Below are positions 3,785-26,141 of a stretch of 64,000 bases of DNA, in pieces (position 1 is the first letter of the stretch; each line of letters begins with the position of its first letter). A program made the translations under genes and the position numbers. The notes beneath the pieces are model-generated. The model was not told the DNA's origin. It searched no databases and saw only the letters and a program-made list of their open reading frames with translations. Source of the stretch: an uncultured Thermoanaerobaculia bacterium (GTDB taxonomy: Bacteria; Acidobacteriota; Thermoanaerobaculia; Thermoanaerobaculales; Sulfomarinibacteraceae); contig CAZQYU010000001.1 in the NCBI GenBank assembly GCA_964597585.1, forward strand, positions 632 to 64,631, given 5' to 3'.

Positions 3785-3813
3785 TTGCGATTTTCTTCAC
3801 ATGCGGATAGAGT
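3785..3813 (+). promoter_or_regulatory. Candidate sigma-70 promoter for the giant cytochrome gene
   Basis: TTGCGA (3785-3790), a 17-nt spacer, then TAGAGT (3808-3813). It lies in a locally AT-richer intergenic stretch. The GAGGAGG RBS and ATG 3838 follow. Confidence 0.35.
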
Positions 3814-3837
3814 TATGCATCGAGGAGGTCGGGGGGG

Positions 3838-6999: not shown

Positions 7000-7028
7000 T
7001 CAGAGCACCGCAGCTCCCCGATCGCGGC

Positions 7029-7090
7029 GTGGCGGTCACGCGGCCCCGTGCCACGCGATCGCCCGACGGCCGAAGGTCGGAGAGTCGGCG
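7029..7090 (+). terminator. GC-rich imperfect hairpins downstream of the cytochrome gene (possible terminator, no U-tract)
   Basis: CGATCGCG(GC)GTGGC ... GCCACGCGATCG at 7029-7071, followed by CCGAC-N8-GTCGG at 7073-7090. Confidence 0.2.
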
Positions 7091-7192
7091 TCGCTCCGCT
7101 TAGATTGAGGATTCTCCGCGGTGGGGGTACCCTGACCGAAGCGCCCGCAGTCTCATGAGGCAATCGTTCACCGGGAGGGTTGGAAGGCGACC

Positions 7193-7852
7193 ATGACCAG
7201 GATTCTCGGTTTCTACGAGTCGACGCTGGGCAAGAAGTGGGTGATGGCCGCGACCGGCATCATCCTCTTCCTTTTCGTGGTGGTGCACATGCTCGGCAAC
7301 CTGCAGCTCTACCTCGGAGCGGAGCAGCTGAACCACTACGCCGAGCTCCTGCGCAAGAACATGGCGCTGCTGTGGACGGCGCGTTGCGTGCTGCTGTTCT
7401 GCGTCGCCGTGCACATCGTCGCGGCGGCCCAGGTGTGGCTCCGCAGCCGCGCAAGCCGACCGGTGAAGTACAGGGTCTTCCGTCCGCCTGCGGTGGACTA
7501 CGCGGCGCGGACCATGGCGTGGAGCGGACCGATCATCGCCGCGTTCGTGCTCTTCCACATCCTCGACCTGACGGTGGGTACCGTGCATCCCGGTTTCGTC
7601 CGTGGCGACGTCTACCACAACGTCGTCACGGGGTTCCAGAACCCCTGGGTGGCGGGCCTCTACATTCTCGCCAATGCGCTGCTCGCGATGCACCTCTACC
7701 ACGGCCTCTGGAGCCTCTTCCAGACCTTCGGCTGGGACCACCCGAAGCTCAACCCGTGGCGGCGTCGCGCCGCGGTCCTGTTCGCCGTGGCCATCGGGGC
7801 CGGCAACATCTCCATGCCGCTCGCCGTGCTCACCGGCGTCGTGCACCTGTGA
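7193..7852 (+). CDS. sdhC: Succinate dehydrogenase/fumarate reductase cytochrome b subunit (single b558-type anchor)
   Basis: 219 aa with five hydrophobic helices bearing His ([33 protein letters not shown]). It sits directly upstream of sdhA and sdhB. Confidence 0.85.
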
Positions 7853-7865
7853 GGAGGAACGGCCA

Positions 7866-9775
<1,910 letters not shown>

Positions 9776-9779
<4 letters not shown>

Positions 9780-10543
9780 AGCTGACGCTGCACATCTGGC
9801 GCCAGAGGGACCAAAACGACGCGGGCGGTTTCGCGACCTATCGGCTCGCCGACGTCAGCACCCACATGTCGTTCCTCGAGATGCTCGACGTCCTCAACCA
9901 GGAGCTGATCGAGAAGGGCGAGGAACCGGTCGCGTTCGAGCACGATTGCCGCGAGGGCATCTGCGGCTCGTGCGGTTTCGTCATCAACGGTCTCGCCCAC
10001 GGCGGTCAGCGCGGCAGCACGGTCTGTCAGCTGCACATGCGGCACTTCTCGGACGGTGACGAGCTGGTGCTCGAACCGTGGCGAGCCAAGGCGTTCCCGG
10101 TGCTCAAGGACCTGATCGTCGATCGTTCCGCATTCGACCGAATCATCCAGGCCGGGGGGTACGTGTCGGTTCAGACCGGTGCGCCGCCCGACGCCAACGC
10201 ACAGCCCATCGCCAAGGACACCGCCGATCTGGCCATGGACTTCGCGGAGTGCATCGGCTGCGGCGCCTGCGTGGCGTCGTGCCCGAACAGCGCGTCGATG
10301 CTGTTCGTGGGCGCCAAGATCGCGCACCTCGGGCTGCTCCCGCAGGGTCAGCCCGAGCGTGATGCGCGGGCGCGTGCGATGGTGACGGCGATGGAGGACG
10401 AGGCCTTCGGCGCCTGCTCCAACTACCGTTCCTGCGAGGCGGTCTGCCCGAAGGAGATCTCGATCTCCGCGATCGCGAGGATGAACAAAGACTTCCGGAA
10501 GGCGCAGCTTCGCCTCGCCGGCGCAAGCGGAAAGCGGAAGTAG
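9776..10543 (+). CDS. sdhB: Succinate dehydrogenase/fumarate reductase iron-sulfur subunit
   Basis: The ATG at 9776 overlaps the sdhA stop (ATGA). Cys clusters are [22 protein letters not shown] and CEAVCP. Confidence 0.95.
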
Positions 10544-10726
10544 CGAGCCCCCACTTTTCACCGGGTCGAGCTGCGAGCCTGCCGAGATGCGGCCGGCGTA
10601 GAGCCGTCGAGTGGCGAGCCGCCGAGGCGTCTGGAGACGCGCTGCAGGTGGTGGGTTGCGAGAGGGTCGGCGATCGCCGGCAGATCGGCGCTCGCAGCAG
10701 GGGACCGGTGAGATCTGCAGGCGAGA

Positions 10727-12001
10727 TCAGATCACGGTGTCGTCCGGGACGACGGCGTTCTTCGGAACCACGACGATCCCGTCGCGGATGGCCCACCCAT
10801 CGCCTTCCGCCTCGTCGAGGCCCCGCTCGTTGACGATCTTCACGCCGCGCCCGATCCGGGCGTTCTTGTCGATGATCGCGTTCACGATTTCGGTCTCTTC
10901 GCCGATACCGACCGGCGGCGCGTCGGCCGGGGCGTCAGGAACGTGGGAGTCAACTCCCATGATCAGGCAGCGATCGATTCTGCACCCGGTGGCGATGGCG
11001 CGCAGGCCGACCACGGAGTGCGTGACGACCGAGTCCTCGATCCGGGTTCCGTCCGCGAGCAGTACCCGGTCGAAGCTGCAGTGACGGAGCTCGGCGCCCG
11101 GGAGATACCGGGGCCGGGTGTAGAACGGCCATTCGTTGTCGTGGAAGGAGAATGGCGGATGGTCGGAGACGAGGTCCATGTGGGCTTCGAAGAAGGCCCG
11201 GATCGTCCCGATGTCGCGCCAGTAGCCGTTGAAGAAGTGAGTTTGCACGCGGAAGGGGCCCACCGCCGCCGGGATGATGTCGCGCCCGAAGTCGATTGCA
11301 TCGCTCGCCAGACACTCGAGCAGGACGCGCTTGCGAAACATGTAGATCCCCATCGAGCCGAGGTACGGCTCGGCGGCGCCGAGCCCTTCCCGGCGCATGA
11401 CCTCCTCGGGCAGCTCCATGCCCGTGCGTGCCTGAGGGGTGGCGGGCTTTTCGCGAAACTCGCGGATCCGGTTGTCATCATCGACGCGGACCGCGCCGAA
11501 ACCGGCGATCTCCTCCTCGGAGCACGGCATCACACCGACCGTGATGTCCGCACCGTGCTTGACGTGGTCGTCGAGCAGGGCGCGGTAGTCCATCCGGTAC
11601 ATGTGGTCGCCAGCCAGGATCAGGACGTGGTCCCCTGGTAGCTCGACGAACGAGCCGAGATTCTGTCGCACCGCGTCTGCGGTGCCCTGGAACCAGGCCT
11701 GCGCCCTCGGCGTCTGCTGGGCGGCCAGAATCTGGACGTAGCCGCGGGAGAAGGCGTCGAAACGGTAGGTGCGGCCGATATGGCGGTGGAGCGAAACCGA
11801 GTTGAACTGGGTGAGTACGTACATCCGTTCCATCGACGAGTTGATGGCGTTCGAGATCGGGATGTCGATCAGGCGGTACTTGCCCGCGATCGGTACAGCC
11901 GGCTTGGAGCGCAGGCGGGTGAGAGGCTCGAGGCGGGTTCCACGGCCGCCCCCGAGGATGAGGACGGTGACGTTGGCGGTGAGATCGTTGAGACGGGTCA
12001 T
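10727..12001 (-). CDS. glgC: Glucose-1-phosphate adenylyltransferase
   Basis: LILGGGRGTRLEPLTRLRSKPAVPIAGKYRLIDIPISNAINS is the family signature. ATG 12001 has GGAGGAGG about 10 nt upstream. Confidence 0.9.
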   Translation of the reverse strand: MTRLNDLTANVTVLILGGGRGTRLEPLTRLRSKPAVPIAGKYRLIDIPISNAINSSMERMYVLTQFNSVSLHRHIGRTYRFDAFSRGYVQILAAQQTPRAQAWFQGTADAVRQNLGSFVELPGDHVLILAGDHMYRMDYRALLDDHVKHGADITVGVMPCSEEEIAGFGAVRVDDDNRIREFREKPATPQARTGMELPEEVMRREGLGAAEPYLGSMGIYMFRKRVLLECLASDAIDFGRDIIPAAVGPFRVQTHFFNGYWRDIGTIRAFFEAHMDLVSDHPPFSFHDNEWPFYTRPRYLPGAELRHCSFDRVLLADGTRIEDSVVTHSVVGLRAIATGCRIDRCLIMGVDSHVPDAPADAPPVGIGEETEIVNAIIDKNARIGRGVKIVNERGLDEAEGDGWAIRDGIVVVPKNAVVPDDTVI

Positions 12002-12066
12002 CAGTGCGAGACCTCCTCCAATCAGTGTAGCCCGCACCTCTCACCCTCTCGCTCCTGCGGGCGAGG

Positions 12067-15000
12067 TCAATACATCCGCGAGAGGCGCAGCCCGGTTCCG
12101 GACCGCGCGGTGTGGAAGAGTGCTTGGAGGGACGAACGGTAGGGGCTCGCCGAGGATGGTTGGCCGTTGACGGTCTCGACTGTGAGCGATGACGCGGGCC
12201 GTTCAGTGCGGGCCAGCTGCACCTTGAGGAACTCCAGGTAGCGGGTGATGAACGGGTGGTCCGGTGCGACCCTGATGTCGAGGCGGCGCCCGCGACCCTC
12301 GGAGACGATGACAATTCTCGGGCCGTGGCACACGAGGTGATTGCTGGCCACCCGGCGGGGGAGGCCGTTGCCAAGGCCCTCGATGCCGAGCCCGCAGGGA
12401 GACGCGGGGTCGGCGGCGCTGAGCCACCACACCCGGTCCTCAGGCAGGCCGTCGAGCAGCGCTCGGACTGCGGCCGGGCTCGCGAACTGGAGCCCGTGGA
12501 TACCCTCGAAGAAGCGGCCCGAGACGACCTCGCCCGAGAGCTCGAGCAGGCGTAGGCTGCGGAAGAGTGTGCTCCAGGTGAAGTTCGCGGGCTCGCGGTC
12601 AAGAAGCTCCCGGAACAGGACGCCGTAACGCTCGAGCAGCAGACGGGCGCGCTCGGCGTTGTGCTGCTCGAGATCGAGGGGATCGTCGACGGGCTCGAGC
12701 GGGGCCATCCGGTACCAGGCCGCGGAGAACGGGCGGCTGGCGCGCCAGCGGTCGAGAGAGCCTCGACGAGGGCGACGAACTGCGGTGGCTTGTGGATTCC
12801 CCGCCGCTCGAAATCGAGTGGCCACGCCGCGCCGGACAGGATCGAAACCGACCGCCGAGAGCTCGCCGCGCCAGGCCCCGGCCCACAGCCGCGCGGTGAC
12901 CACCGCCGATCCGAGCCCGCTGTGGGCGACGAGCTCCTCAAGCCCGAAGCGTCCGAGCGGGTGGGGGAAGAGCGGATCCGCCTCGGTCCCGGATTCCGGC
13001 TCCAAGACGAGCTCGCGCTCACCTGCGAGGGTGAACCCGACCCTGCGCGGCCCGACGCCGAACCACTCGAGATCAGTCTCCGCGAGCAGCGTGTCGAGCC
13101 AGGACGAATGGTAGGGCGACACACGCGCCGGCAGGATCTCGGTTTCCCAGAGCTCGGCGGGAAGGCCGAGGCCGAGCAGGGGTTCCAGGGCGCCGCGGAG
13201 GTCGTCGATGCCGGCGTCGGCGACGCCGAGGTGTTGATGGCAGGCAAGGAAGAGCGGCACATTCACGGCGGGCAGCGGGGTGAGCTCGGGACGGGCGGCG
13301 GAGCGGGCGAGGCGCAGCGCGCGCTCGAGGTTCTCCCGATCCGCGACCTCGATGTCCACCGCGTCGGCGGTGAGCAGGTCGAGAACGACCTCCTCGTTCT
13401 CCGCGAGGGCTGCGAGTGCCGCCGCGAGGTGGTTCGGGTCGAGGCGCAGGGCACGGGCAACGGCGCCGACCGGACGTGGTCCGTATGCTCGCAGCCACTC
13501 GCCGAGCATGGCGGGGAGGTCCGGGCCGCGGCCATCTTCGTCACGGCGCCGGCGCGCGAACCGGGCGAGCAGGGCCGCGGCGGCGTCCGCGTGACTTTCC
13601 GAACAGGTTGGCCCGAGGCGGAGCGCGCGGAGGTCGCGGCCGAGTGCAGTGGCGACACGCGGGAGCTCGGCGATATGGACCACGCTCCACGGGCGTTCGT
13701 CCCCGGCCTCGAAGACTGTTACGACGCGGTCGGCGCAGGCGGCGATGGCGGCGTCTGCATCTGCGCCGTGGTCTCGTCGCATTGCGTCGATCAGCTCCTC
13801 CCACTCGGGGAAGGGGATCAACAGGCGCTCGCGGACCCAGTCCCCGAGATCGTCGCCGTCACGGGGCGACCAGCCGGGGGCTCTGCGCTGGAGCTTGGCC
13901 TCGAGCTTCGCCACGAGCTCGGCCGAAAGTCGCGGCCGCAATGCCGACGAGGTCGCGAGCTCGCGAACGAGGTCGCCTCGCACACCGACACGACGTGCGG
14001 AAGACGCCGCATCGTCGGCGTACATGAGCGCGTTGGTCTCCTTCCACAGCACGTTGGCGGCGAAGGGGGAGGGGGTGTCGGTCCGGACCTCGTGGACACG
14101 GGTCAAGCCGTCGCGGATCTCGTCGAGGACGCCGCGCAGTGCGGCAAGATCGAACTCGTCCTGTAGGCAGGACCGCCACGCCTCGAGTGCGAGCGGAAAG
14201 TCGCCCGACGGCGCCACGGCGTCGAGCAGCTCTTTCGCGCGCAGCCGGTGCAGCCACAGTGGCGTTCGCCGCCGAAAGCCTGCCCGTGGCAGCAGCAGGG
14301 CGGTCCCGGCGGCCTCACGGAAGCGCGCTCCGAAGAACCCGGTCCCCTCGAGCTCTCGCCGCAGCGCGTCCTCGAGGCCGGTGACGTCGACCAGGGCGAG
14401 AATGGCGTCGGGCCGATGGTCGGCGGGAAAGGTCAGCGCAATGCAGTCATCGTCGTGCACGACGTCCGGACGCGCGCCGAAGCGCTCCTGCCACCTGCCG
14501 GTGAGAACTGATGCCAACGGACGGTTGACGCGTCCGCCCCATAGGGTGTGGAGCACGACTCGGCGATGGTCGGAGCCGGCGTCCATGGCCGAGGTGTGCT
14601 CGATGACGAGCCTGTGCCGATGCGGCAGCGCGCCGGTGGCGGCACGCTGGGCGCGCAGGCTGGAGACCAACTCAGCGGCGGCCGCCGTCGACAGCGGCAG
14701 CTCGGCGGCGAGCCGGTCGGCGGCATCGGCCCCGTCGATCCACCCTTCGATGCGCTCGAGCAGCCGCCCGACCCGCTCGGAGAGGAAGAACGAGCGGTCG
14801 CGCTCGTCGGCTCGCCAGAAGGGCGCCATCGAGGCCCGGCCGCGGGCTGGGACCACGAAGACATCGTTGTGGGTGACGCGCTCGATACGCCAGCTCTGGA
14901 CGCCGAGGGTGAAGGTGTCGCCGACCGACCGCTCCCACACGAACTCCTCGTCGAGCTCGCCGAGCGGTGCTCCGGAACCCTCCAGCCGGAGCTGGAAGTA

Positions 15001-16593
15001 GCCCCGGTCAGGGATGGTGCCGCCCGACAGGTAGAGCAGGCGTTCGACGCCGGCGCGGGTGCGCACGGTGCCGTCGATCGGGTCGAGGGTGACCAGCGGA
15101 CGCAGGCTGCGCAACCGCGTCGACGCATAGCGGCCGGCGAGCATGTCGAGCACCAGGTCGAAGTGGCGCCGTGGCAGCTCGGCGTAGCCGTCCGCAGTGC
15201 GGACCGCATCGTAGAGGTCGTCGACCCGCCAGGTCGCCGCGACACACATGGCGACGATGACCTGGGCGAGGACGTCGAGGGCGCCGGCGACAGGACGCAC
15301 CGGTTCGAGCTCGCCGTCGAGCACCGCCCGTCCCAGCACGGCGGCCTGGAGCAGGTCGCGCGGGTGTGTCGGGTAGAGTCGGCCTCGGCTCACCGCCCCG
15401 ACCGCATGGCCGGCGCGACCCAGGCGCTGGACCGTCGAGGCAATCGTCGGCGGCGCCTGGACCATCGCGACCTCGTCGATCGTTCCGACGTCGATCCCGA
15501 GCTCGAGGGAGTTGGTGGCGACGATCGCCCGCAGCTCGCCATCCTTGAGGCGCTCCTCGACGACCGCCCGGACCTCGCGTGAGAGCGAACCGTGGTGGGA
15601 CCAGACCAGGGCCTCGCCGGCGTCCTCATTGAGCATCCGAGCGAGGCGCTCGACCATTCGTCGACTGTTCGCGAAGACCAGCGTCGAACGATTGCGCCGG
15701 ATCGTCGCCCGCAGCTCGGCAGCGAGAGCGACCCACGCGTCTTCGTCGCCGCCGGGGCCCACGAGCGCACCGGTGGTCCGGACCTCGAAGTCGTAGCGCT
15801 TGTCCGACGGTACCCTCACCACTCCGACCGAGCGGGGGCGGGATGGTCCGCCCTCGCCCCCTGGAGCCCGCCCCCCGACCCATGCCGCGACCCGCGCGGC
15901 GGGCTCGACCGTGGCGGAGAGGGCAAGGCGCTGGAATTCGCCGCTGATTCGCGCCAGGCGCTCGACTGCGGTCATCAGGTGCAGGCCGCGCTTGGCGCCG
16001 ACCAGGGCGTGGACCTCGTCGAGGATGACGGTGCGCACCTCGGTGAATAGGAGCCGCCAGCGGCCGGAGAGTAGCATCAGGTTGAGGCTCTCGGGGGTCG
16101 TCACGAGGATCTCCGGCGGATGGCGGAGCATCCGCCGTCGCTCCGCCTCGCTGGTGTCCCCCGATCGCACGGCCACACGGATCTCCGGCATCGGCAGCTG
16201 AGCGACGCGGCAGTGCTCGGGAAGCTCGATGAGCGGCACCAGAAGATTGCGCCTGATGTCGTTGGCCAGGGCCTTGAGCGGCGATACGTAGACGACCCGG
16301 ACGCCACCGGCGGACCAGGCGCCGGAAACGAGCCGGTCGATCGCCCACAGGAAGGCGGTCAACGTCTTCCCGCTTCCGGTCGGAGCAGTCACCAGGAGAT
16401 GCTCTCCGGCGGCGATCCGCGGCCACGCGGCAGCCTGGACAGGCGTCGGCGCGCCGAGGCGCGCAGCGAACCAGGCGAGCACCGGCGGGCTGAAGTGGGG
16501 CGGCCCACCGCCCGGCGGGACCGTGCCGGATTGGCGGCATGTACGAGAGGTCTGCGGGGGGCTCACCAGTCGGGAAGCGGCCGCTTGAGCCAA
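12067..16593 (-). CDS. lhr: Lhr-type large ATP-dependent helicase (long form, about 1500 aa)
   Basis: Walker A is VTAPTGSGKTL and the DEAD-box variant is ILDEVH. The size and long C-terminal extension are typical of Lhr. The track start is TTG 16593. An alternative GTG at 16566 overlaps the stop of the upstream gene (GTGA). Confidence 0.9.
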   Translation of the reverse strand: MAQAAASRLVSPPQTSRTCRQSGTVPPGGGPPHFSPPVLAWFAARLGAPTPVQAAAWPRIAAGEHLLVTAPTGSGKTLTAFLWAIDRLVSGAWSAGGVRVVYVSPLKALANDIRRNLLVPLIELPEHCRVAQLPMPEIRVAVRSGDTSEAERRRMLRHPPEILVTTPESLNLMLLSGRWRLLFTEVRTVILDEVHALVGAKRGLHLMTAVERLARISGEFQRLALSATVEPAARVAAWVGGRAPGGEGGPSRPRSVGVVRVPSDKRYDFEVRTTGALVGPGGDEDAWVALAAELRATIRRNRSTLVFANSRRMVERLARMLNEDAGEALVWSHHGSLSREVRAVVEERLKDGELRAIVATNSLELGIDVGTIDEVAMVQAPPTIASTVQRLGRAGHAVGAVSRGRLYPTHPRDLLQAAVLGRAVLDGELEPVRPVAGALDVLAQVIVAMCVAATWRVDDLYDAVRTADGYAELPRRHFDLVLDMLAGRYASTRLRSLRPLVTLDPIDGTVRTRAGVERLLYLSGGTIPDRGYFQLRLEGSGAPLGELDEEFVWERSVGDTFTLGVQSWRIERVTHNDVFVVPARGRASMAPFWRADERDRSFFLSERVGRLLERIEGWIDGADAADRLAAELPLSTAAAAELVSSLRAQRAATGALPHRHRLVIEHTSAMDAGSDHRRVVLHTLWGGRVNRPLASVLTGRWQERFGARPDVVHDDDCIALTFPADHRPDAILALVDVTGLEDALRRELEGTGFFGARFREAAGTALLLPRAGFRRRTPLWLHRLRAKELLDAVAPSGDFPLALEAWRSCLQDEFDLAALRGVLDEIRDGLTRVHEVRTDTPSPFAANVLWKETNALMYADDAASSARRVGVRGDLVRELATSSALRPRLSAELVAKLEAKLQRRAPGWSPRDGDDLGDWVRERLLIPFPEWEELIDAMRRDHGADADAAIAACADRVVTVFEAGDERPWSVVHIAELPRVATALGRDLRALRLGPTCSESHADAAAALLARFARRRRDEDGRGPDLPAMLGEWLRAYGPRPVGAVARALRLDPNHLAAALAALAENEEVVLDLLTADAVDIEVADRENLERALRLARSAARPELTPLPAVNVPLFLACHQHLGVADAGIDDLRGALEPLLGLGLPAELWETEILPARVSPYHSSWLDTLLAETDLEWFGVGPRRVGFTLAGERELVLEPESGTEADPLFPHPLGRFGLEELVAHSGLGSAVVTARLWAGAWRGELSAVGFDPVRRGVATRFRAAGNPQATAVRRPRRGSLDRWRASRPFSAAWYRMAPLEPVDDPLDLEQHNAERARLLLERYGVLFRELLDREPANFTWSTLFRSLRLLELSGEVVSGRFFEGIHGLQFASPAAVRALLDGLPEDRVWWLSAADPASPCGLGIEGLGNGLPRRVASNHLVCHGPRIVIVSEGRGRRLDIRVAPDHPFITRYLEFLKVQLARTERPASSLTVETVNGQPSSASPYRSSLQALFHTARSGTGLRLSRMY

Positions 16594-16979
16594 GTCCGGA
16601 CGACCGCGTCGCGCTGTCGGGCCAGCTCCTCACTCTCCGCGGGGATCTGGCGAGCTTCAGCTTCGACGCGGCGGAAACCCGCCGCGACCAGGAGAACCGC
16701 GACGGCGGGGAGAACCACGTAGATGAGGTCCTTCATGCCGAGCAAACCAGTCACGGCGCCGATCCCAAACAGGATCGGGGGCGCGGCGAGAAGAACGAGC
16801 TGGACCAGCGCCGCGCTCATCTGGCGTGCGACCACCCGCTTGTAGCGCTCGAGATCGGCGGTCGACTGCAGCCGTCCGATCGCTCGAACCGTCCGCTTCA
16901 GCTCGCGGCCGAACCACAACGAGTTCAAGATCGCGAGCGTCGGCAGGCCGACCATCACGGCGATCAGCTGTCCGCGCAT
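16563..16979 (-). CDS. Small integral membrane protein (3 predicted TM helices), function unknown
   Basis: 138 aa in a GC3-rich frame. It overlaps the upstream helicase gene by 16 nt, and its stop overlaps a candidate lhr start. Confidence 0.55.
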   Translation of the reverse strand: MRGQLIAVMVGLPTLAILNSLWFGRELKRTVRAIGRLQSTADLERYKRVVARQMSAALVQLVLLAAPPILFGIGAVTGLLGMKDLIYVVLPAVAVLLVAAGFRRVEAEARQIPAESEELARQRDAVVRTWLKRPLPDW

Positions 16980-19411
16980 GGGTCCTCCGGCGGCATCTTA
17001 CAGCCGACGTCTCGCGGCGGCGAGAAGAACGCGCGCACCGCGGCGACGGGATCGGGGTGGAGGAGGGCAGAAGGGTCGCCGTCAATCCACTCGTCGGGCA
17101 GCAGCGCGGCGTAGCGGCGGTCGAGAAACCGGCGGCAGAGCAGCACGATCGTGCCGCGATCGGTGGCCGAGCGGATGAGCCGGCCAGCGGCCTGGACCAC
17201 CCGCGTCATGCCGGGCACGAGGTAGGCGTACTCGAATCCCCTGCCGTAGTGCGCGGCGTAGTAGGCCTTGAGCATCTCCCGCTCAAGGTTGTACAGCGGT
17301 AGCCCCGGCGAGACGACCATGACCTGGGAGAGCATGTCGCCGGGGTAGTCGACACCCTCTGCGAAGATCCCACCGAGGACCGCCAGCACGAGCTGTGAGC
17401 GACCCGAGGAGAGGCGGCCGAGAAGCTCCTGCTGCTCGGCGTCGGACGCGCCTCGCTGCTGCACCAGGACTTCATGGGCCATCCCCGGCAAGCGGTCGAG
17501 GACAGTCTCCAGGAAGGCGTAGCTCGGAAACAGCACCAGTGCGTTGAGGCCCGGCTCCGCGAGCCTGGAAATCCAGCCGGCGATGGCGTCGGCGTGCTCG
17601 AGCCGTCGACGCCACGTGGTGTCGACATCATCGACGGCCAGCACGAGGCGGTTCTCGGCAGGGAACGGAGACGGCACCGCAAGCGTGTCAGTGCGGTGAT
17701 CGTCAAACCCGAGCAGATCGCGGTAGAACTCGAAGGGCTCGAGCGTCGCCGACATCGCCACGCAGCCGCCGCTCTCCTCGAGCACTGCACCGAGGAACCG
17801 AGAGGCATCGAGGCAAACGATGCGCAGGCGGACTTCTCCGACAGCCGTGCGCCCTGCGAGGTGCACGAACTCCTCGCCGCCGAGCCCGAGGACACGGTGA
17901 AAGTGGGTGAGCTGGAAGAACGCGTCGAGCACCGGATCGTCGGCGCTCCACAGCTCGTGCTCGCGCTTGTACAGGAAGTACTGCAGGATGGCTGCATCGA
18001 GCTCGATCCTGATCTCGGTGAGCTCGCGGCGGGGGAGCTCGACCGGATTCTCGGCGTCGTGGCGGTCCTCGATCGCGTCGCGGACCGTGCCCTCAACCAG
18101 CTCGGCGAGTGTCCCTATCACTGCAGCAAGGCGACGAAAGAGAGCGTTTTCCCGGCCGGCAAGGAAGCCCAGAGCGGGTTGGAGGATCGCTGATGAAAGG
18201 GAGGGGGAGTAGTACTCGCGGCTGCGCTCGACGAGATTGTGGGCCTCATCGACGATCAGGACGGCCCTCTGGAGTGCGCCGCCCCCGAGCAGGCTGGCGA
18301 GCCCGATGACCGGGTCGAAGACGTAGTTGTAGTCACAGATCACGACATCGACGTCGGGCAGCAGGTCGAGCGACACCTCGAAAGGACACACCTCATGCTG
18401 GCGTGCCGCGTCGAAGATCCGGTCCGGCTCGAAGTGGCTGCCGGAGTCGAGCAGTGTCGGCAGCAGCTGGGAGCGGATCAGCTTGACGCCGTACTCCCGC
18501 GCAAAGGGGCAGAACTCCTCGTGGCAGATCATCTCCGCATTTGCGCACATCTTGCCCTTGGCGCGGAGCTGGAGGCTCCGGAAGCCGTCCCGCTGCATCG
18601 AGCGGACGGTCTCAACCGCGAGCGTCTGTTGGAGCGTCTTGGCGGTCAGATAGAAGAGCCTGTGGCCGTCGAGCAGCGCTCGGCGCAGGGCGGCGTGCAT
18701 CACCGCCGCGGTCTTCCCGGCCCCGGTAGGTGCGGCGAGTAGAAGGTGACGCTGCTCGCCCAGCGCCGCTTCCACCGCCGCGCCCATCGGCATCTGGGCG
18801 GGCCGTGGCTCGGGGTGAGGGAAGGGCAGATCTCTGGCTTCGGCGCGGAGTCGCTCGAGGCGTTCGAGCCGCCGCTGCTCGATCGCGATGAGCCTCCGGA
18901 CCGTCTGCCCCAGCCAATCGTCGACCGAGGTACGATCCCAGACGACCTCTTCGTGTCGCTCCTCGAAGGTGACGATGTCAACCAGCACCAGCCGCGCCGA
19001 GGCAGGTACGTCGTCGCCGGAGAGCGCGGCGGCGTAGAGACTGACCTGGCGTCTGAAGCGGTCGAGACGCTCGCTGGCATAGAGGTTATGGAGATCGACG
19101 GCGAAGTGCAGGGTCTTGATCTCGTCGACTCGGACCACGTGGTCATCAAGGCGGATCACTCCGTCGGCACGCCCGACGACCGTGACGCGCCAGCCGTCCA
19201 CGACGGTCTCGAAACGCACCGGGACCTCGGCCTCGAACCCGGGCGAGACCGCGGCGAGCTCCTCCTGGACCCGCCGGTGGAGCTCTTGGCCGATCCACAG
19301 CCGTGACAGCCCGGAGCCGTTGAGCCCGATCGCGCGATTTCCGGATTCGCCCACGAGGTCGGTCACGCTGGCCGCGAAGGAGCGCGACTCGAGATCGATC
19401 AGAATCGCCAC
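16964..19411 (-). CDS. Fusion of an N-terminal RecB/Cas4-like PD-(D/E)XK nuclease domain to an XPD/DinG (Rad3-family) Fe-S helicase
   Basis: Nuclease motifs are GRADGV, VDEIKT and RRQVSLYAAAL (QxxxY). Helicase motifs are AAPTGAGKTAA, four Cys (KMCANAEMICHEEFCPF...EVCPFE), LIVDEAHNL (DEAH) and VVQAAGRLIRS. Confidence 0.85.
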   Translation of the reverse strand: MAILIDLESRSFAASVTDLVGESGNRAIGLNGSGLSRLWIGQELHRRVQEELAAVSPGFEAEVPVRFETVVDGWRVTVVGRADGVIRLDDHVVRVDEIKTLHFAVDLHNLYASERLDRFRRQVSLYAAALSGDDVPASARLVLVDIVTFEERHEEVVWDRTSVDDWLGQTVRRLIAIEQRRLERLERLRAEARDLPFPHPEPRPAQMPMGAAVEAALGEQRHLLLAAPTGAGKTAAVMHAALRRALLDGHRLFYLTAKTLQQTLAVETVRSMQRDGFRSLQLRAKGKMCANAEMICHEEFCPFAREYGVKLIRSQLLPTLLDSGSHFEPDRIFDAARQHEVCPFEVSLDLLPDVDVVICDYNYVFDPVIGLASLLGGGALQRAVLIVDEAHNLVERSREYYSPSLSSAILQPALGFLAGRENALFRRLAAVIGTLAELVEGTVRDAIEDRHDAENPVELPRRELTEIRIELDAAILQYFLYKREHELWSADDPVLDAFFQLTHFHRVLGLGGEEFVHLAGRTAVGEVRLRIVCLDASRFLGAVLEESGGCVAMSATLEPFEFYRDLLGFDDHRTDTLAVPSPFPAENRLVLAVDDVDTTWRRRLEHADAIAGWISRLAEPGLNALVLFPSYAFLETVLDRLPGMAHEVLVQQRGASDAEQQELLGRLSSGRSQLVLAVLGGIFAEGVDYPGDMLSQVMVVSPGLPLYNLEREMLKAYYAAHYGRGFEYAYLVPGMTRVVQAAGRLIRSATDRGTIVLLCRRFLDRRYAALLPDEWIDGDPSALLHPDPVAAVRAFFSPPRDVGCKMPPEDPCADS

Positions 19412-19515
19412 CGCGACATTCTAGGTTCTTTCGGCGGGACGAGCCCGTCCGGCCCGTTGGTGGATTCGCATGATGTGGCGACCTCAGTGTAACCTCTGCA
19501 AAGCGGTGTCGTAAG

Positions 19516-20616
19516 ATGCAGAGCATGAAGCGTTGGAGCGTCCTCGCGGTCTGCCTTGTCGTCGCGTTGGTTGCCTGCGCGTCCACCTCCGCCAACGGTG
19601 GGCGCGACCCGATCTACTTCGGTCGTGCATCGTGGACGGCCGCGGTCATCGAACGCGGCCTCGATCCGGCAGATGTCGTGTATCCGTTCGACATCACTCC
19701 TGACATGGAAAAGTGGGCTCGCTCCGTCACCGAGCGGGACACCGGTACGGTGAGCCGGCTCAACAAGCTTCAGGCGGCGCTTTTCGCTCCGGGCGAGTTT
19801 CCATTCAGCTACGACCAGAAGGTGACGCTTCCGGGGAAGCGGGCGTTCAAGGAGCGTCGGGGAAACTGCCTGGCCTTCACGTCCATGTTCGTCAGCCTCG
19901 CCCGCAGCATCGGCCTGCCGGGATTCCTGGTGATGGTGCAGCGTACGCCGACGGTCGAACGGGACGAGGACATCGTGGTGGTCAACCGGCACGTCGTTGC
20001 CGGCTACTCCGAGGCGAGCCGCCTCTACCTGTTCGATTTCTACGAGAGATCTGAAACCCCCTACATCCAGACGCGGGTGATCGACGACCTCGCGGCGAGC
20101 GCGCTGTTCCATACCAACTTCGGTGGCGATGCCATTCGCGAGGGCGATGTCGAGCGCGCCGAGCTCAACTTCCGCATCGCGACACAGCTCGGACCCGAGC
20201 TGGCCGCACCATGGATCGGACTCGGTGTGATCCAGTTCCGACAGGGCAGGCTCGAGAGTGCGCTCGAATCGTATCGTCACGCCCTCGAAGTCGAACCTGG
20301 AAACCCGTCCGCGCTGACCAACTTGGCGCACCTCTACCGACGCCAGGGTCTCGAGGACCAGGCCGGTGCGGCCCTACGCGCCGCCGGCGAGGGTTCCTCG
20401 AGCCCGTTCACGCTCATAGCCCTCGCCGACAGCGAAATGGCGCAGGGCGATGTGCGGCGGGCCAGGCACTACCTCCGCAAGGCACGGCACAACTACCGCG
20501 ACGAGCCTGAAGTGTGGGAAGCCATGGCGCGCCTCGAGACCGCACGCGGCGACCAGTCCGCTGCCCAGCGGTACCGCGACCGGGCGCGGGCGCTACGCGC
20601 CGACGGGGACAGCTGA
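19516..20616 (+). CDS. Lipoprotein with a transglutaminase-like cysteine-protease core and C-terminal TPR repeats
   Basis: Lipobox VVALVAC. RRGNCLAFTSMF contains the candidate catalytic Cys, followed by NRHVVAGY and a later Asp. TPR-like repeats sit in the C-terminal half. The start may instead be ATG 19525. Confidence 0.7.
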   Translation: MQSMKRWSVLAVCLVVALVACASTSANGGRDPIYFGRASWTAAVIERGLDPADVVYPFDITPDMEKWARSVTERDTGTVSRLNKLQAALFAPGEFPFSYDQKVTLPGKRAFKERRGNCLAFTSMFVSLARSIGLPGFLVMVQRTPTVERDEDIVVVNRHVVAGYSEASRLYLFDFYERSETPYIQTRVIDDLAASALFHTNFGGDAIREGDVERAELNFRIATQLGPELAAPWIGLGVIQFRQGRLESALESYRHALEVEPGNPSALTNLAHLYRRQGLEDQAGAALRAAGEGSSSPFTLIALADSEMAQGDVRRARHYLRKARHNYRDEPEVWEAMARLETARGDQSAAQRYRDRARALRADGDS

Positions 20617-20751
20617 GCGGGCCGACCCGCACTCGGGACAGGGCGCCGTGCGGAAGCTCAGGTTGTGTCGCCTGTTGTATTCTGCTCCGTCGAGTGACGG
20701 CGACCGAGAGCTGCGCGACCCGCCGCGACTCGGTTGGAGGGTGAAGGCGAG

Positions 20752-22068
20752 ATGGACGGAGCCGGGGAACTCGATCGGGAACGCCGCCAAGATCCTCGCG
20801 CGGAGTTGCACGTCGAGCTCATGTACGACTCGTTCTCCTCCTTCCTCAGTGTCGCCGCGGGCAATCTCTCCCGCGGCGGCATGTTCCTCACCGTCCCGGA
20901 TCCCGCTCCCGCCGGTACCCGGCTGTCCTTCGAGGCGCGCCTCCGTGACGGCTCGAGTCTCATTCGTGGCCAGGGCGAGGTGGTGTGGACGCGGACCGAG
21001 GTCACCGCGGGCCTGCCGACAGGCATGGCGATCCGGTTCACCCGCCTGACCGCCCAGGCGAGGGAGCTTATTGCCCGCCTGCTCGAGCAGTACCCGGACG
21101 GCAAGAGCGGGAGCGTGCGCTTGGGAGGCGTCCGGCTGGGCAAGGCGAGAGCACTCGTCGGGACCGCCCCGGCGCCGGTCGAACGGTCCCTTCCTCTGGG
21201 AGAGCCTCTCGCTCCGGAGCCGTCGCCGGCCGACAGGGATCGGCCAGACCGACCTCCGGTCCTGCCCGAGCAGGAAGGCGTGCCCCGCCGCGCCTTGAAC
21301 GAGGAGGCACAACCGACCACTCAACCCCACGAGCGCGCGCCGGAGATCCGAGTCACCGACGAGGTCGGATCGGAGTTCGATTTCACGCTGCCGCCGTGGG
21401 AGACCGAGGAGATCCCCGCCGAGCTGCGGCCGCCGAACCCTGTCCGCATGATTTTGATCGCCCTCGCGGTCCTTTGTCTCATGCTGGTCGTGATCTACCT
21501 CGGACCGCTCAACCTGATCGAGAGTGTGGGGCACATCGGCTCAGCGATCTCGCACCGCCTCATGCCGCAATCCTCGACACGTCCGACCCCTGCCACCGTG
21601 CAGCGCGCCGGTTCGGTCGAGCTCGGGCCCAACCACGATGCCGCGGCCGCTCCGAGTGCCGCGTCCGAGGACGGCGGCTCCCAGGCCGCAGACACGACTG
21701 AAAGGTCCGGGCAGACTGCTGCATCCGCATCGTTGATCGTCGACAGGGTCGCGTGGCGCCGCGACGCCGCCGGCGTGGTGGTCACGGTGGAGGCGAACCG
21801 TGACATCCCGCGAGACGCCGTCCACTACGGGTCGTTGAGTGAACCGCCACGGTACGTCGTCCGCATCATCGGCGTCACCGACTACCGCGGGAATGCGACG
21901 CTGGAGCTTCATCGCGAGGACCTGTTGCGGATCCGGATCGGCGTGCACGGGGACCATGTGCCAGCGGAGATTGACATCGTCCTCGACCTGGGCTCGAGCT
22001 TGGTCACGGTCGAGCCGCTAGGCATTCATGGGCGTCGGGTGGAGCTCGCAGTCCGGTTCGGGGGCTGA
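20752..22068 (+). CDS. PilZ domain - transmembrane helix - AMIN domain protein
   Basis: ATG 20752 follows GGAGGGTGAAGG. PilZ motifs are RQDPR (RxxxR) and NLSRGG (D/NxSxxG). TM helix is MILIALAVLCLMLVVIYLG. The C-terminus is AMIN-like (PPRYVVRIIGV...LRIRIGVH...IDIVLDL). Confidence 0.8.
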   Translation: MDGAGELDRERRQDPRAELHVELMYDSFSSFLSVAAGNLSRGGMFLTVPDPAPAGTRLSFEARLRDGSSLIRGQGEVVWTRTEVTAGLPTGMAIRFTRLTAQARELIARLLEQYPDGKSGSVRLGGVRLGKARALVGTAPAPVERSLPLGEPLAPEPSPADRDRPDRPPVLPEQEGVPRRALNEEAQPTTQPHERAPEIRVTDEVGSEFDFTLPPWETEEIPAELRPPNPVRMILIALAVLCLMLVVIYLGPLNLIESVGHIGSAISHRLMPQSSTRPTPATVQRAGSVELGPNHDAAAAPSAASEDGGSQAADTTERSGQTAASASLIVDRVAWRRDAAGVVVTVEANRDIPRDAVHYGSLSEPPRYVVRIIGVTDYRGNATLELHREDLLRIRIGVHGDHVPAEIDIVLDLGSSLVTVEPLGIHGRRVELAVRFGG

Positions 22069-22188
22069 TGAAGGAGAGCGGGACGCTCGGGTACGGTTCG
22101 CCCGAGCTGGTTCCGCGCTACCATTCGTCATCACCAGCCGGAGCTCGAACCGGTGTCAACGACGGGCTTGAGGTAGGAGGACGGTGTC

Positions 22189-22707
22189 ATGAACGCGAGG
22201 AGACTCGGAGAGATGTTGTGCGACAAGCAGCTGGTCGACGACGAGTCACTGCGGACGGCGCTCGAGGTTCAGCGCGGTACCGGAGAGCGGCTCGGCTCAA
22301 CCCTGCTTCGCCTCGGCCTCGTCGATAGCGCCTCGCTCGCCCGCATCCTGGGCGAGCAGCTGGAAGTGGAGGCGGTGGATCCCTCGTCGGAGTTTCCGGA
22401 GGCCGACGCCCTCGCGTTGATGTCCTTCACCGATGCGATGCGCCTCGGATGCCTGCCTCTGAGGGTGCGTGAGGGCGAGCTCACAATCGCCATGACGGAA
22501 CCCCACGATGAAGGCTCATGTGCTCAGATCGCAGCACTGACGGGCACTCGCGTGCATGCCGTCGTCGCGCCCCAGATGGCGCTCTTCGAGGCGCTCAAGC
22601 GAGTTTACCGCGGCGCTTCCATAGAGGACGAGAAGGTCACGAGAATCCGGCGGGTGGCTATCGGACTCCGCGCACTCGCCGATGAGCTTGAGGGCCTTCT
22701 GGGCTAG
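22189..22707 (+). CDS. Stand-alone MshEN (T2SSE_N) c-di-GMP receptor domain protein
   Basis: The RBS is GAGGTAGGAGGA. Two tandem 24-residue motifs are separated by a 5-residue spacer (RGTGE): RLGEMLCDKQLVDDESLRTALEVQ and RLGSTLLRLGLVDSASLARILGEQ. There is no ATPase domain, and the protein is only 172 aa. Confidence 0.85.
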   Translation: MNARRLGEMLCDKQLVDDESLRTALEVQRGTGERLGSTLLRLGLVDSASLARILGEQLEVEAVDPSSEFPEADALALMSFTDAMRLGCLPLRVREGELTIAMTEPHDEGSCAQIAALTGTRVHAVVAPQMALFEALKRVYRGASIEDEKVTRIRRVAIGLRALADELEGLLG

Positions 22708-22783
22708 CAGCGCGCACCGCACAGCCCGCCGATCGCCCTTGCGTCGGGTGACCGCGGCCGGGGGGCTCTGCGGTGCGCGCTGC
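22707..22783. repeat. Long inverted repeat (20-bp arms, 19/20 complementary, 37-nt spacer) between convergent genes
   Basis: GCAGCGCGCACCGCACAGCC (22707-22726) pairs with GGCTCTGCGGTGCGCGCTGC (22764-22783). It begins inside the MshEN stop codon. A second hairpin, GATCGG-N5-CCGATC, lies at 22787-22803. Confidence 0.6.
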
Positions 22784-22892
22784 CTCGATCGGCTCCGCCG
22801 ATCTTGTGGGCAGATCACCGGGTGCGGCGGAGGCGGTCAGAGCTTTGGCCGCTGCCTGAGCCGGCGTAACGCAGGTCCGGCCGGAAGCGTCC

Positions 22893-25193
22893 TCATGCGG
22901 ATGAGCCCGCGTCGAGCTGCGACGAGGGCACGGGATGGATGGGAACGACCCGGTTCCGGCCGGCGCGCTTTGCGCGCAGCAGCGCCACGTCGGCGTCAGC
23001 GATCAGCCTTCGCGTCGACTCCTTTCCGGCGTGCTGCGGGCCGATCTGGGCGAGCCCGATCGAGATCGTGACCCTGACCGGGACGTCATGCTCCACCGCG
23101 AGCTCGAGAGTTTCGACCGTGGCTCGCGCCTTTTCAGCGACCTGCACTGCCCCCGCCAGATCCGTCTCGGGAAGGACAAACAGGAACTCTTCGCCGCCGT
23201 AGCGTCCGACTGCATCGCTGGTACGGAGCCCATCCTTGAGCGCTTGGGCGACCATCTTGAGAAGGGTGTCGCCGGCGAGGTGGCCGTAGCGGTCGTTGAC
23301 CCGCTTGAACTCGTCGATGTCGGCCATGCCGACCGAGAGAGGCCGATCGTGTCGGACCGCGCGCTGGATCTCCTGCGCGAGGATGTCCTGCACGGCCTCT
23401 CTCCGCAGAAGACCGGTCAGGCGCTCATAGGTCGCGGACTCGAACAGGCGCACGTTCTCGAGCACGCTGGCTATGGTGTGCGAGAACAGTCCCAGGAGCT
23501 CGATCTCTTCTCCGACGAAGCGAGCGCCGTCGTTCTTGGGACCGAGCAGGAGGATACCGACCAGATTGTCGCCGGAGCGCAAAGCCAGCGCCCACTGTGC
23601 GTCGAACTGCTGGAGTCGCTGTGCGATGGTGGCGCTGCGACGTCCGACCGCCTGTGCGGGAATCAGTCGTCCGGTCTGCCGAAGCATCCGGACTCCCTCG
23701 TCGTCCGGACCGAGGAGCAGCGAGTGTTCGGCATTGCCGTCGAGGTCGATGGCCGTGGAGGCGAGGCTGACCAGGATTGCGGTGCGCGGGTCGGCGACCA
23801 GGAGCGACGCCGAACGGGCGTCGAAGATGTCCCGGATCTCAGCAACCAGGTGGCGCCCCATGGCCGGGAGGCTACCGAGCGCGGGCAAGGTCTCGGCGAG
23901 CTGCGTCAGTCGCTTGCGCATGGCGATCCGTTCAGGGAACACGCGAGTGTCGATCACACGCTGAACGGCACCGCGCAGCGGGGCGAACAGGAGCCCGGTG
24001 CACAGCGCAACCGCACTGATCAGCCACACGGGGAGCCTGCCTCCGACAACCACGAGCGAGACCGCATTGCCGCCGATCCAGAGCAGGCCGAGAGCGACCG
24101 CCGCCAGAGCCAAGGTCACAATGGTGTAGACCAATCCCCTGCGCACCACGATTTCGATGTCGACGAGTCGGTAACGGAAGATCGCGATGAAGACCGCGAG
24201 AGGGTAGGCGAGCAGCGCCAGCGGTTGGACCACTGTGTCGAGCACGCCCGGCAGTGGTCGCCCCAGGGCACTGGCGAAAGTCGACACAAAGGTGTAGGTG
24301 GCCCACGGCAGCACGCCAAGCAGGACCAGCAAGGCCTGGGTCCGCTCTCGGGACGTGGTGGACCGGCGCACCTGACCGAGCATGATGAGGACGACGGCGA
24401 GCGCCCAGGTCGGGAGCAGGACGACGTCCAGAGCGACGACAACCTGGTCGGTGGTCCAGACCAACGCAGGAAAGCGGAGCGCCTCCGCGACCTCGGTGAA
24501 GACGCCAAGAGCCGCAAATGAGAGCCCAGCACCATAGAACAGCCGGCGTGGCGTGGCGCGACCGATCATCCACGGCGCACGTCGGGGGATGGCGGCCGCG
24601 AGGTCGAGCTCAAGCCCCATCTGGAGCCCGCTGAGCAGGAAGAACAGGCTCGAACCAATCACTTCGGCAAGGGTGCCGTCCGAGAGCTGCGCTGGCAGGG
24701 CGAGCTCGATCGCGACCGCGGCGGAGAACCAGAACAAGAGCCGGCTGCGCAGATCGGGCGGCTGCTGCTGGAGGGCGAGCAGTCCCAGACCCAGGTAGCC
24801 GAGCGCAGCCAGTGTGTTGATGATCAGGATGGCCCACGGCACCGAGGCGCCGGGGACCGCTTCGAGGGTCAGCTCGGCGCCATCGCGGCGAATCGTCAGC
24901 CGGGCCGGTTGACCGGCCCTGAATCCGAGCGCGGCACGGTCGTAGTCAGCGTAGTCGCGGACCCGGAGACCATCGACGGCTATCAGCCGGTCGCCGGCGA
25001 GGACGCCTGCGGACGACGCACCGAGCTCGGGATTGACGCTCTCGACGAGCAGCCCTCCCTCCCGCGCGACGGAGATCGCGAACCCGAGGCGCTGCTCCGC
25101 CATGCGACCCGCATGGTGCCACTGGAACAGGCTCATGCCGGCAACGAGCACGATCAGGGCCAGGCCCGCAGAGCGTCTGATGGAGTGTGTCAC
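22893..25193 (-). CDS. Membrane diguanylate cyclase: TM - PDZ - multi-TM - GAF - GGDEF
   Basis: The active site is GGEEF in RTSDAVGRYGGEEF, which also carries an RxxD I-site 5 residues upstream. The PDZ-like segment is LLVESVNPELGASSAGVLAGDRLIAVDG. There are about 9 further hydrophobic helices. The start is uncertain (GTG 25193 or 25229). The track start at 25493 overlaps the neighbouring gene and is rejected. Confidence 0.85.
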   Translation of the reverse strand: MTHSIRRSAGLALIVLVAGMSLFQWHHAGRMAEQRLGFAISVAREGGLLVESVNPELGASSAGVLAGDRLIAVDGLRVRDYADYDRAALGFRAGQPARLTIRRDGAELTLEAVPGASVPWAILIINTLAALGYLGLGLLALQQQPPDLRSRLLFWFSAAVAIELALPAQLSDGTLAEVIGSSLFFLLSGLQMGLELDLAAAIPRRAPWMIGRATPRRLFYGAGLSFAALGVFTEVAEALRFPALVWTTDQVVVALDVVLLPTWALAVVLIMLGQVRRSTTSRERTQALLVLLGVLPWATYTFVSTFASALGRPLPGVLDTVVQPLALLAYPLAVFIAIFRYRLVDIEIVVRRGLVYTIVTLALAAVALGLLWIGGNAVSLVVVGGRLPVWLISAVALCTGLLFAPLRGAVQRVIDTRVFPERIAMRKRLTQLAETLPALGSLPAMGRHLVAEIRDIFDARSASLLVADPRTAILVSLASTAIDLDGNAEHSLLLGPDDEGVRMLRQTGRLIPAQAVGRRSATIAQRLQQFDAQWALALRSGDNLVGILLLGPKNDGARFVGEEIELLGLFSHTIASVLENVRLFESATYERLTGLLRREAVQDILAQEIQRAVRHDRPLSVGMADIDEFKRVNDRYGHLAGDTLLKMVAQALKDGLRTSDAVGRYGGEEFLFVLPETDLAGAVQVAEKARATVETLELAVEHDVPVRVTISIGLAQIGPQHAGKESTRRLIADADVALLRAKRAGRNRVVPIHPVPSSQLDAGSSA

Positions 25194-25365
25194 TTCGGTC
25201 CTGAAGGTTGCGACAACCGTTTCGAGCACTCCGATTGTCCGCCTCGAGCCGCAGTATAGCGGGGCTGTCGCTTGCGGTGGCTCTCTCCGCGTGGATGTTC
25301 GAGACAACCGTCGGCTGCTGGCAGCAGGGAGAGGGGGTTGCGAAAGAGCGCCGGGCGGGAACTGC

Positions 25366-26025: not shown

Positions 26026-26141
26026 GGCGCGATTGTACGACGCCGCCGTATGGCCCGTTGAATCCCGGGTGACCACCTCCTGTGGTATCATTCCCGCCCG
26101 CTGGACGCCGCTCCGGCCGCGTTCGGGTCAAGAGGCCTGCC

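Follow-up and report, generated by a model that had tools for sequence, protein, structure and literature searches.

We describe three overlapping genes on the minus strand of a 64,000-nt stretch of DNA (hereafter the window; contig CAZQYU010000001.1 of assembly GCA_964597585.1, positions 632 to 64,631) from an uncultured Thermoanaerobaculia bacterium. They encode a nuclease-helicase of the EndoDinG subgroup, a small protein with three transmembrane (TM) segments, and the helicase Lhr. The order EndoDinG, small gene, lhr is inherited within one clade of Acidobacteriota, and the triplet is probably a chromosomal, lineage-restricted housekeeping repair operon of a Thermoanaerobaculales-type acidobacterium. 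An earlier interpretation made from the letters of the window only (the sequence-only reading) had offered two explanations, an undescribed membrane-associated DNA-processing or defence module and housekeeping repair genes in an order peculiar to the lineage. The latter is favoured by synteny in a single clade, a collinear core-genome context and overlaps that are limited to the nearest relatives. The former gained no positive support, and the small gene also occurs apart from both helicases or convergent to EndoDinG.

The window has a G+C content of about 66%, and the three open reading frames (ORFs) show a gene-like distribution of G+C over their codon positions:

16964..19411, minus strand: EndoDinG gene, GTG start, 815 aa
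16563..16979, minus strand: small membrane-protein gene, ATG start, 138 aa
12067..16566, minus strand: lhr, 1499 aa counted from the GTG at 16566

Gene order across genomes

Conservation of the triplet was surveyed from the helicase and, separately, from the small gene. For the helicase, one genome per GTDB species yielded 80 EndoDinG loci, which were searched by tblastn and with a small-protein profile in flanks of up to 10 kb per side. EndoDinG is at least 60% identical to that of the window in seven of them, the sources of which are labelled as Thermoanaerobaculales, Thermoanaerobaculia, Holophagae or Acidobacteriota metagenome-assembled genomes (MAGs) or just as "bacterium", and only these seven bear the small gene nearby. 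The full triplet is present in five (L008, L011, L012, L015 and L022), and the sequence of another (L010) ends before it could show. Neither Lhr nor the small gene was found in the flanks of the 73 loci whose EndoDinG is at most 52% identical, which belong to other Acidobacteriota, Bdellovibrionota, Desulfuromonadales/Geobacteraceae and many Firmicutes. The arrangement is consequently not kept across the lineages that possess the component families, but is confined to the clade with EndoDinG at least 60% identical. The concern of the sequence-only reading that the genes might not be syntenic in relatives is dispelled within this clade; conservation across genomes did not extend to the searched flanks of any of the 73 more distant loci.

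A metagenome scan with a 12-sequence alignment of the small protein added 49 further loci. For small proteins of 49% identity or more, and as far as the flanks reach, the small gene is preceded by EndoDinG on the same strand and followed by Lhr; the exception is L103, which has no EndoDinG in the 10 kb upstream of the small gene. At 36-46% identity three types of context are found, namely EndoDinG without Lhr, EndoDinG on the other strand and convergent to the small gene (L106, L107, L109 and L120), and neither helicase within 10 kb on either side (L112, L113, L118, L121 and L122, and likewise L115 and L116, whose flanks are a little shorter). These context classes correspond to clades in a neighbour-joining tree of the small proteins. 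Within the triplet clade the order lasts down to about 45-50% identity of the small protein and about 50% identity of Lhr, while the flanking genes change.

The simplest history would have the small gene become a neighbour of EndoDinG in one ancestor, with Lhr subsequently placed downstream in one sub-clade. The spacers would have collapsed into overlaps only in the tip that contains the window.

No universal EndoDinG partner gene was found across the 80 loci. Recurrent neighbours are lineage-specific and include LysR-like and ABC-F-like genes (sequences read by eye), a purL-like gene and an exonuclease. The exonuclease is of the family TIGR04122, the ligase-associated DNA damage response exonuclease, and EndoDinG lies immediately downstream of it in five Bdellovibrionota loci (L030, L031, L034, L037 and L039). 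In L039 the exonuclease occupies 8784-9920 and EndoDinG 9920-12340, and the TIGR04122 score is 378 bits against a cut-off of 325. We take this exonuclease to be a member of the Lhr-Core/MPE/ligase cluster; neither a ligase nor an Lhr-Core gene lies within 10 kb of the exonuclease-EndoDinG pair. The pairing is a hint of a second, independent link of EndoDinG to an Lhr-type repair neighbourhood.

Some further features of the relatives are recorded here in their own right. In most members of the triplet clade an additional gene on the same strand abuts the start of EndoDinG (L002 6651-7484, L004 986-1819, L010 2475-3275, and also L008, L009, L012, L015 and L022); the window, L001 and L011 lack it. 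Its product is called as 277 aa in L002 and L004, the median length of the stop-to-stop ORFs is 248 aa, and both ends are hydrophobic. No Pfam family is precomputed for the calls in L002 and L004, and neither Pfam nor NCBIfam gave a match for the ORF in L010. Helicase and/or Lhr frames are broken in the long-read MAG contigs L001, L012 and L022, with a split EndoDinG gene call in L001; these breaks look like assembly indel errors, not pseudogenes. In L009 some 300 nt after the small gene (6430-6861, 6900-7200) appear non-coding and contain short repeated words (FEIRNSKFE-like in translation), and the convergent ORF of that locus reads by eye as an Xaa-Pro aminopeptidase. The loci L112, L113, L115, L116, L121 and L122 share a conserved, helicase-free neighbourhood around the small gene (about 10001-10414 or equivalent). 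Read by eye, the neighbours are a DmpA-like peptidase, a sensor kinase of 1450 aa and, immediately upstream of the small gene, a flavodoxin-like FMN reductase.

The three gene products

Judged by its sequence, the product of the first gene is an EndoDinG, with the nuclease residues, the XPD core and the Fe-S cysteines all in place. Its 815 aa comprise a PD-(D/E)XK endonuclease domain at the N-terminus and, behind it, an XPD/DinG-type helicase of superfamily 2 (SF2) with a 4Fe-4S domain. The helicase matches the Pfam families DEAD_2 (5.5e-13), HBB (9e-10) and Helicase_C_2 (1.3e-32). Among solved structures the top match is FmaDinG (9KQH; phmmer E=1.4e-85, residues 36-775), and archaeal XPD structures match the helicase at about 1e-41. 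Homologs at E<=1e-10 number 1446, many of them about 800 aa long. Two parts of the gene are of particular relevance:

18827..19411, minus strand: nuclease domain of EndoDinG, about residues 1-195
18386..18547, minus strand: Fe-S cluster region with C289, C296, C301 and C342

The nuclease domain taken by itself gave no match in Pfam (PF12705 is precomputed for some homologs), and its assignment therefore rests on the alignment with 9KQH and on invariant motifs. The domain has the catalytic residues H45, E62, D83, E97 and K99, the substrate-binding R81 and R10, and the motif Q122-x3-Y126. Residues H45, E62, R81, D83, E97 and K99 are invariant in an alignment of 14 homologs (A2) and align with H40, E54, R73, D75, E88 and K90 of FmaDinG, which mutagenesis has shown to be needed for nuclease activity (PMC13650095). 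The four cysteines are likewise invariant in A2, and three of them (C289, C296 and C301) have cysteine counterparts in FmaDinG. EndoDinG proteins are described as having a CCCC motif (PMC11981726); the four-cysteine Fe-S domain of the window protein has the canonical form, and cluster binding is predicted. The 9KQH match and the invariant catalytic residues and cysteines uphold the description of this protein in the sequence-only reading as a nuclease-XPD/DinG helicase with an Fe-S cluster.

The EndoDinG subgroup was named in a 2025 review (Cheng 2025, PMC11981726). Its first characterised member, FmaDinG of Finegoldia magna (PDB 9KQH), is an endonuclease of single-stranded DNA (ssDNA) that prefers Mn2+ and, at the same time, a Mg2+-dependent, ATP-dependent 5'-3' helicase; the authors of that study give the in vivo role of EndoDinG as unknown (Li et al. 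2026, PMC13650095).

The lhr product has both parts expected of the full-length Lhr clade, to which its sequence assigns it. The Lhr-Core, which consists of two RecA domains, a winged helix and domain 4, is represented by DEAD (6.7e-31), Helicase_C (8.9e-18), WH_Lhr (2.6e-39) and DEAD_assoc (7.3e-48), and the C-terminal winged-helix domain (Lhr-CTD) by WH3_Lhr (4e-09) and WH4_Lhr (1.7e-21), so that the Pfam set is complete. In phmmer searches it matches Lhr of M. smegmatis (7LHL) at E=3.6e-201, the best-scoring stretch covering residues 319-1396 of 1499, and 5V9X at E=1.9e-177. The complete domain set and the 7LHL match agree with its earlier identification as an SF2 Lhr helicase. The NCBIfam model PRK09751 scores 746 bits, which is under its equivalog cut-off of 1496 bits. 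Lhr is a 3'-5' translocase and helicase; the mycobacterial protein is tetrameric and contributes to crosslink resistance.

The small protein ends in KRPLPDW and contains three hydrophobic stretches, the centres of which lie near residues 13, 67 and 92. Its AF2 model (pLDDT 91.8) consists of three long helices and a C-terminal helix packed on loop 1, and the hydropathy peaks and the model are both in accordance with the three TM segments attributed to it previously. By the positive-inside rule, loop 1 and the C-terminal helix would form a small cytoplasmic domain, and their conserved face reads RQRDA..TW.K.PLPDW. No family was found for it in Pfam, NCBIfam, PADLOC or PHROG, and a Foldseek search of the model against the PDB returned nothing below E=1. 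A holin or phage origin was rejected, with a non-significant Pfam holin match (E=0.76) and no meaningful PHROG match.

GC-rich DNA gives rise to many ORFs by chance (in 14 kb, 109 reach 50 aa or more), and the sequence-only reading had conceded that the small ORF might be a spurious, non-conserved call. The conservation data refute a chance ORF between two real genes, and we consider it next to impossible. All 15 close homologs are 138 aa long, homologs of about this length reach down to 24% identity, and a profile run against 1.84 billion cluster representatives gave 491 matches at E<=1e-3, nearly all of 130-145 aa. The three-TM layout is conserved across the family, and a C-terminal W-x5-P-x-W is almost invariant family-wide and invariant within the triplet clade. 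The ratio of nonsynonymous to synonymous substitutions (dN/dS) of the small gene is 0.29 against L001 and 0.24 against L089, the two nearest orthologs, and its codon-position GC (0.74/0.47/0.82) is typical for genes of the window. Moreover, it is preceded by a GGAGG of its own, and genes for this protein turn up in genomic settings that have little in common. The 491 representatives, for which there is no Pfam or NCBIfam model, define an unannotated membrane-protein family.

Junctions, expression signals and surroundings

The features at the gene boundaries are the following:

16964..16979, minus strand: overlap of the 3' end of the helicase gene with the 5' end of the small gene, 16 nt
16563..16566, minus strand: GTGA junction, the lhr GTG (16566-16564) overlapping the small-gene TGA (16565-16563)
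16984..16988, minus strand: Shine-Dalgarno-like GGAGG, read from the sequence, 4 nt before the small-gene ATG
19418..19423, minus strand: -10-like TAGAAT, candidate promoter, 6 nt before the helicase GTG

All three genes thus overlap as the sequence-only reading had proposed, the helicase stop with the membrane-protein start by 16 nt and the membrane-protein stop with the GTG of lhr. The lhr ORF spans 12067..16593, and a TTG at 16593 is a possible alternative start, which independent gene callers did not pick in L001 and L005. The 4-nt overlap is also contained in the independent gene calls of L005, an identical metagenome contig, and of the relative L001, and the junction GACTGGTGA is identical in the window, L001 and L089. 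Overlaps of stop and start on the same strand, here of 16 and 4 nt, are what a translationally coupled operon would show, and an operon of overlapping, probably coupled genes is a reasonable assumption for the window genome.

The 16-nt overlap is limited to the window, L001, L088 and L089, and the GTGA junction to the window, L001 and L089, the sequence of L088 stopping before that point. L011 has a small-gene/lhr overlap of its own kind. The longer overlap arises from a C-terminal tail of the helicase that is not conserved; in distant homologs the helicase match stops near residue 796-800, and the tblastn matches end 30-900 nt apart.

The arrangement GGAGG-N4-ATG of the small gene recurs in L001 and L089. 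The window sequence contains nothing Shine-Dalgarno-like upstream of the lhr GTG, which together with the GTGA overlap makes termination-reinitiation coupling likely. The sequence CCTAGAATG just 5' of the EndoDinG GTG is conserved in the window, L001 (about 7555) and L011 (about 9990), and a promoter at TAGAAT would give a near-leaderless EndoDinG mRNA. We treat this promoter as a candidate because a consensus scan gave no full sigma-70 site. The LexA/SOS box of the Acidobacterium/alphaproteobacterial type, which we assume to be GTTCN7GTTC, has no match in the promoter region (19412-19515), and its window-wide count is near chance.

If the triplet is an operon of this kind, the three genes would be co-transcribed in one message, possibly from the TAGAAT before the helicase. 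The small gene would initiate independently from its own GGAGG, and lhr would be translated by reinitiation at GTGA. EndoDinG and Lhr, which are of opposite polarity, could share one pathway of DNA-damage processing, in which EndoDinG might fill the ssDNA-nuclease role that Nei2 or MPE play beside Lhr elsewhere. Real cooperation of EndoDinG with Lhr is a possibility that we raise tentatively, because their order persists as the flanks change, pairings of Lhr with ssDNA-cutting enzymes recur, and EndoDinG pairs with an exonuclease in Bdellovibrionota. A place of EndoDinG in the Lhr/ligase-associated damage-response pathway is suggested with similar reserve, in view of the separate exonuclease pairing in Bdellovibrionota. 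A far bolder proposal, that EndoDinG and Lhr constitute one bipolar helicase-nuclease machine for repair or DNA degradation, tethered or gated by the three-TM protein and produced from a single coupled message, we deem highly improbable.

Several findings weigh against a repair operon with a common task. In L009, a Thermoanaerobaculia MAG, Lhr is absent, and what comes after EndoDinG and the small gene is a peptidase-like ORF in convergent orientation; in L114 and L117 EndoDinG is likewise upstream with Lhr missing downstream (over 10 kb in L114 and about 1.2 kb in L117). EndoDinG-Lhr adjacency is missing from all other EndoDinG lineages sampled, and the synteny may therefore have persisted by descent without a functional link. 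A simple promoter and terminator scan of 10400-19800 had zero hits. In addition, an internal promoter could lie ahead of the small gene, where L001 and L089 have a -10-like TAGAAT and the window a TAAGAT (16995-17000).

These observations lead to the alternative that the gene order is an accident, the three genes being neighbours by descent in one clade, with overlaps produced by genome compaction and with unrelated jobs. The association is indeed limited to a single clade and follows its phylogeny, and overlaps are seen only in the nearest relatives. Furthermore, glgC (10727-12037, minus strand), which codes for glucose-1-phosphate adenylyltransferase and is no repair gene, has the orientation of lhr and follows it after about 30-65 nt in the window as well as in L001, so that tight spacing is here no sign of a common function. 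It may even belong to the same transcript as lhr although it is functionally unrelated. However, an accident does not easily account for an order that is kept within the clade to about 45-50% small-protein and about 50% Lhr identity despite changing flanks, nor for the fact that the two large genes each code for a DNA helicase from a repair family. In other bacteria Lhr also repeatedly adjoins ssDNA nucleases, and EndoDinG adjoins a ligase-associated repair exonuclease in Bdellovibrionota. We therefore regard the accident as a serious contender, but not as the probable explanation, and retain the lineage-restricted repair operon.

The surroundings of the triplet bear on the defence question. 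A Pfam scan of flanking genes covered 963-2420, 3811-12037 and 19516-27554 of the window and detected a multihaem cytochrome, succinate dehydrogenase/fumarate reductase, GlgC, TPR/transglutaminase, PilZ and GGDEF proteins and ribosomal protein S1 (rpsA). L001 is collinear with the window from rpsA to the multihaem cytochrome, a run of housekeeping genes longer than 20 kb, and even remote relatives within the clade have a PilZ gene upstream of EndoDinG. Scans of the window for tRNAs and Rfam elements found neither. The setting is thus not a variable or defence island, a context for which the sequence-only reading had advised a check.

A dedicated three-part membrane-associated module for DNA processing or against phages, in which the three-TM protein anchors or regulates both helicases, could draw on the overlap of all three genes in the window, on the conserved cytoplasmic face and the clade-invariant C-terminal W-x5-P-x-W of the small protein, and on PADLOC defence profiles that match the helicases (typeIV_DinG 6.8e-106, DpdJ 1.2e-161, BrxHI 2.4e-81). 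The flanking genes scanned with Pfam, however, contain no cas-, dpd- or brx-type domains, and the Fe-S cysteines of EndoDinG are intact, unlike in CasDinG. We therefore interpret the PADLOC matches as family resemblance and not as membership. Specifically, neither csf nor cas genes, as expected beside a Type IV-A CasDinG, occur in the scanned flanks (a CRISPR-repeat scan was not made), and neither do domains of dpdA-K or of brxA/B/C/pglX/Z, as expected of Dpd or BREX. The small protein has no PADLOC or PHROG match, its family also occurs with no helicase in the 10 kb on either side (L112, L113, L118, L121, L122 and others), and its gene is convergent to EndoDinG in four loci. The neighbourhood itself is core-genome and collinear with L001. 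A defence island was accordingly rejected (family-level matches, no partner genes, core-genome context, no tRNA), and the dedicated module appears very unlikely. The membrane protein is a clade-specific neighbour and not an obligate subunit, and there is little chance that it is a functional subunit at all.

At 3811-6999 on the plus strand the window encodes a 1062-aa multihaem cytochrome c (c7/c3-type, with MtrC-like domains) fused to a cytochrome b561-like membrane domain. The gene stands beside sdh/frd genes, and L001 and L005 have it as well.

The clade-wide operonic link of EndoDinG with Lhr leads to the hypothesis that EndoDinG works in Lhr-type repair of crosslinks or ssDNA damage. The exonuclease pairing in Bdellovibrionota argues in the same direction. 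The biochemistry of EndoDinG dates only from 2026, and the locus provides a lead to its in vivo role. Beyond this lead and the definition of the small membrane-protein family, it is an ordinary housekeeping arrangement.

Comparison with known systems

The window EndoDinG resembles FmaDinG in its domain order, an N-terminal PD-(D/E)XK nuclease followed by MD1 with Fe-S and Arch inserts and by MD2, and in keeping all catalytic residues and the CCCC motif over a nearly full-length match to 9KQH. The orders listed in the two EndoDinG papers do not include Acidobacteriota of the Thermoanaerobaculales type, the nearest listed order being Acanthopleuribacterales, and neither paper mentions Lhr or a membrane-protein neighbour (PMC11981726, PMC13650095). 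EndoDinG-Lhr adjacency did not surface in literature on Lhr and its neighbours either, the search results being noisy.

CasDinG of type IV-A CRISPR, DpdJ of Dpd and BrxHI of BREX share sequence-family similarity with the window helicases. CasDinG, however, has a degenerate pseudo-FeS module with lost cysteines, whereas the window EndoDinG keeps them, and the match of the window Lhr reaches the C-terminal domain of 7LHL, which is of the housekeeping type. No companion genes of these three systems occur near the triplet in the scanned flanks.

AddAB and RecBCD share only a concept with the locus, the combination of a 5'-3' motor, a 3'-5' motor and a PD-(D/E)XK nuclease. EndoDinG and Lhr belong to different superfamily branches and show no homology to AddB or RecC, and a complex of the two would be conjectural.

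The closest parallels are the operons of Lhr with a nuclease. In mycobacteria lhr is operonic with nei2, and in Pseudomonas Lhr-Core is found with the Mn-dependent ssDNA endonuclease MPE (PMC9841417, PMC11323726, PMC7826289). Like the window locus, the lhr-nei2 operon and the Pseudomonas operon of Lhr-Core, MPE, ligase and exonuclease place an Lhr-family 3'-5' helicase beside an ssDNA-cutting enzyme, in a chromosomal housekeeping setting tied to the damage response. The window differs from them in that a fused helicase and nuclease with the opposite polarity takes the place of Nei2 or MPE, and in the membrane-protein gene between the two helicase genes. Ligase, Nei and MPE domains were not found by the Pfam scan of the flanking genes, and the arrangement is confined to one clade. 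Both helicases come from described families, while the family of the small protein is undescribed. The locus is best seen as a clade-restricted version of the "Lhr plus nuclease" operon theme and not as a new kind of system.

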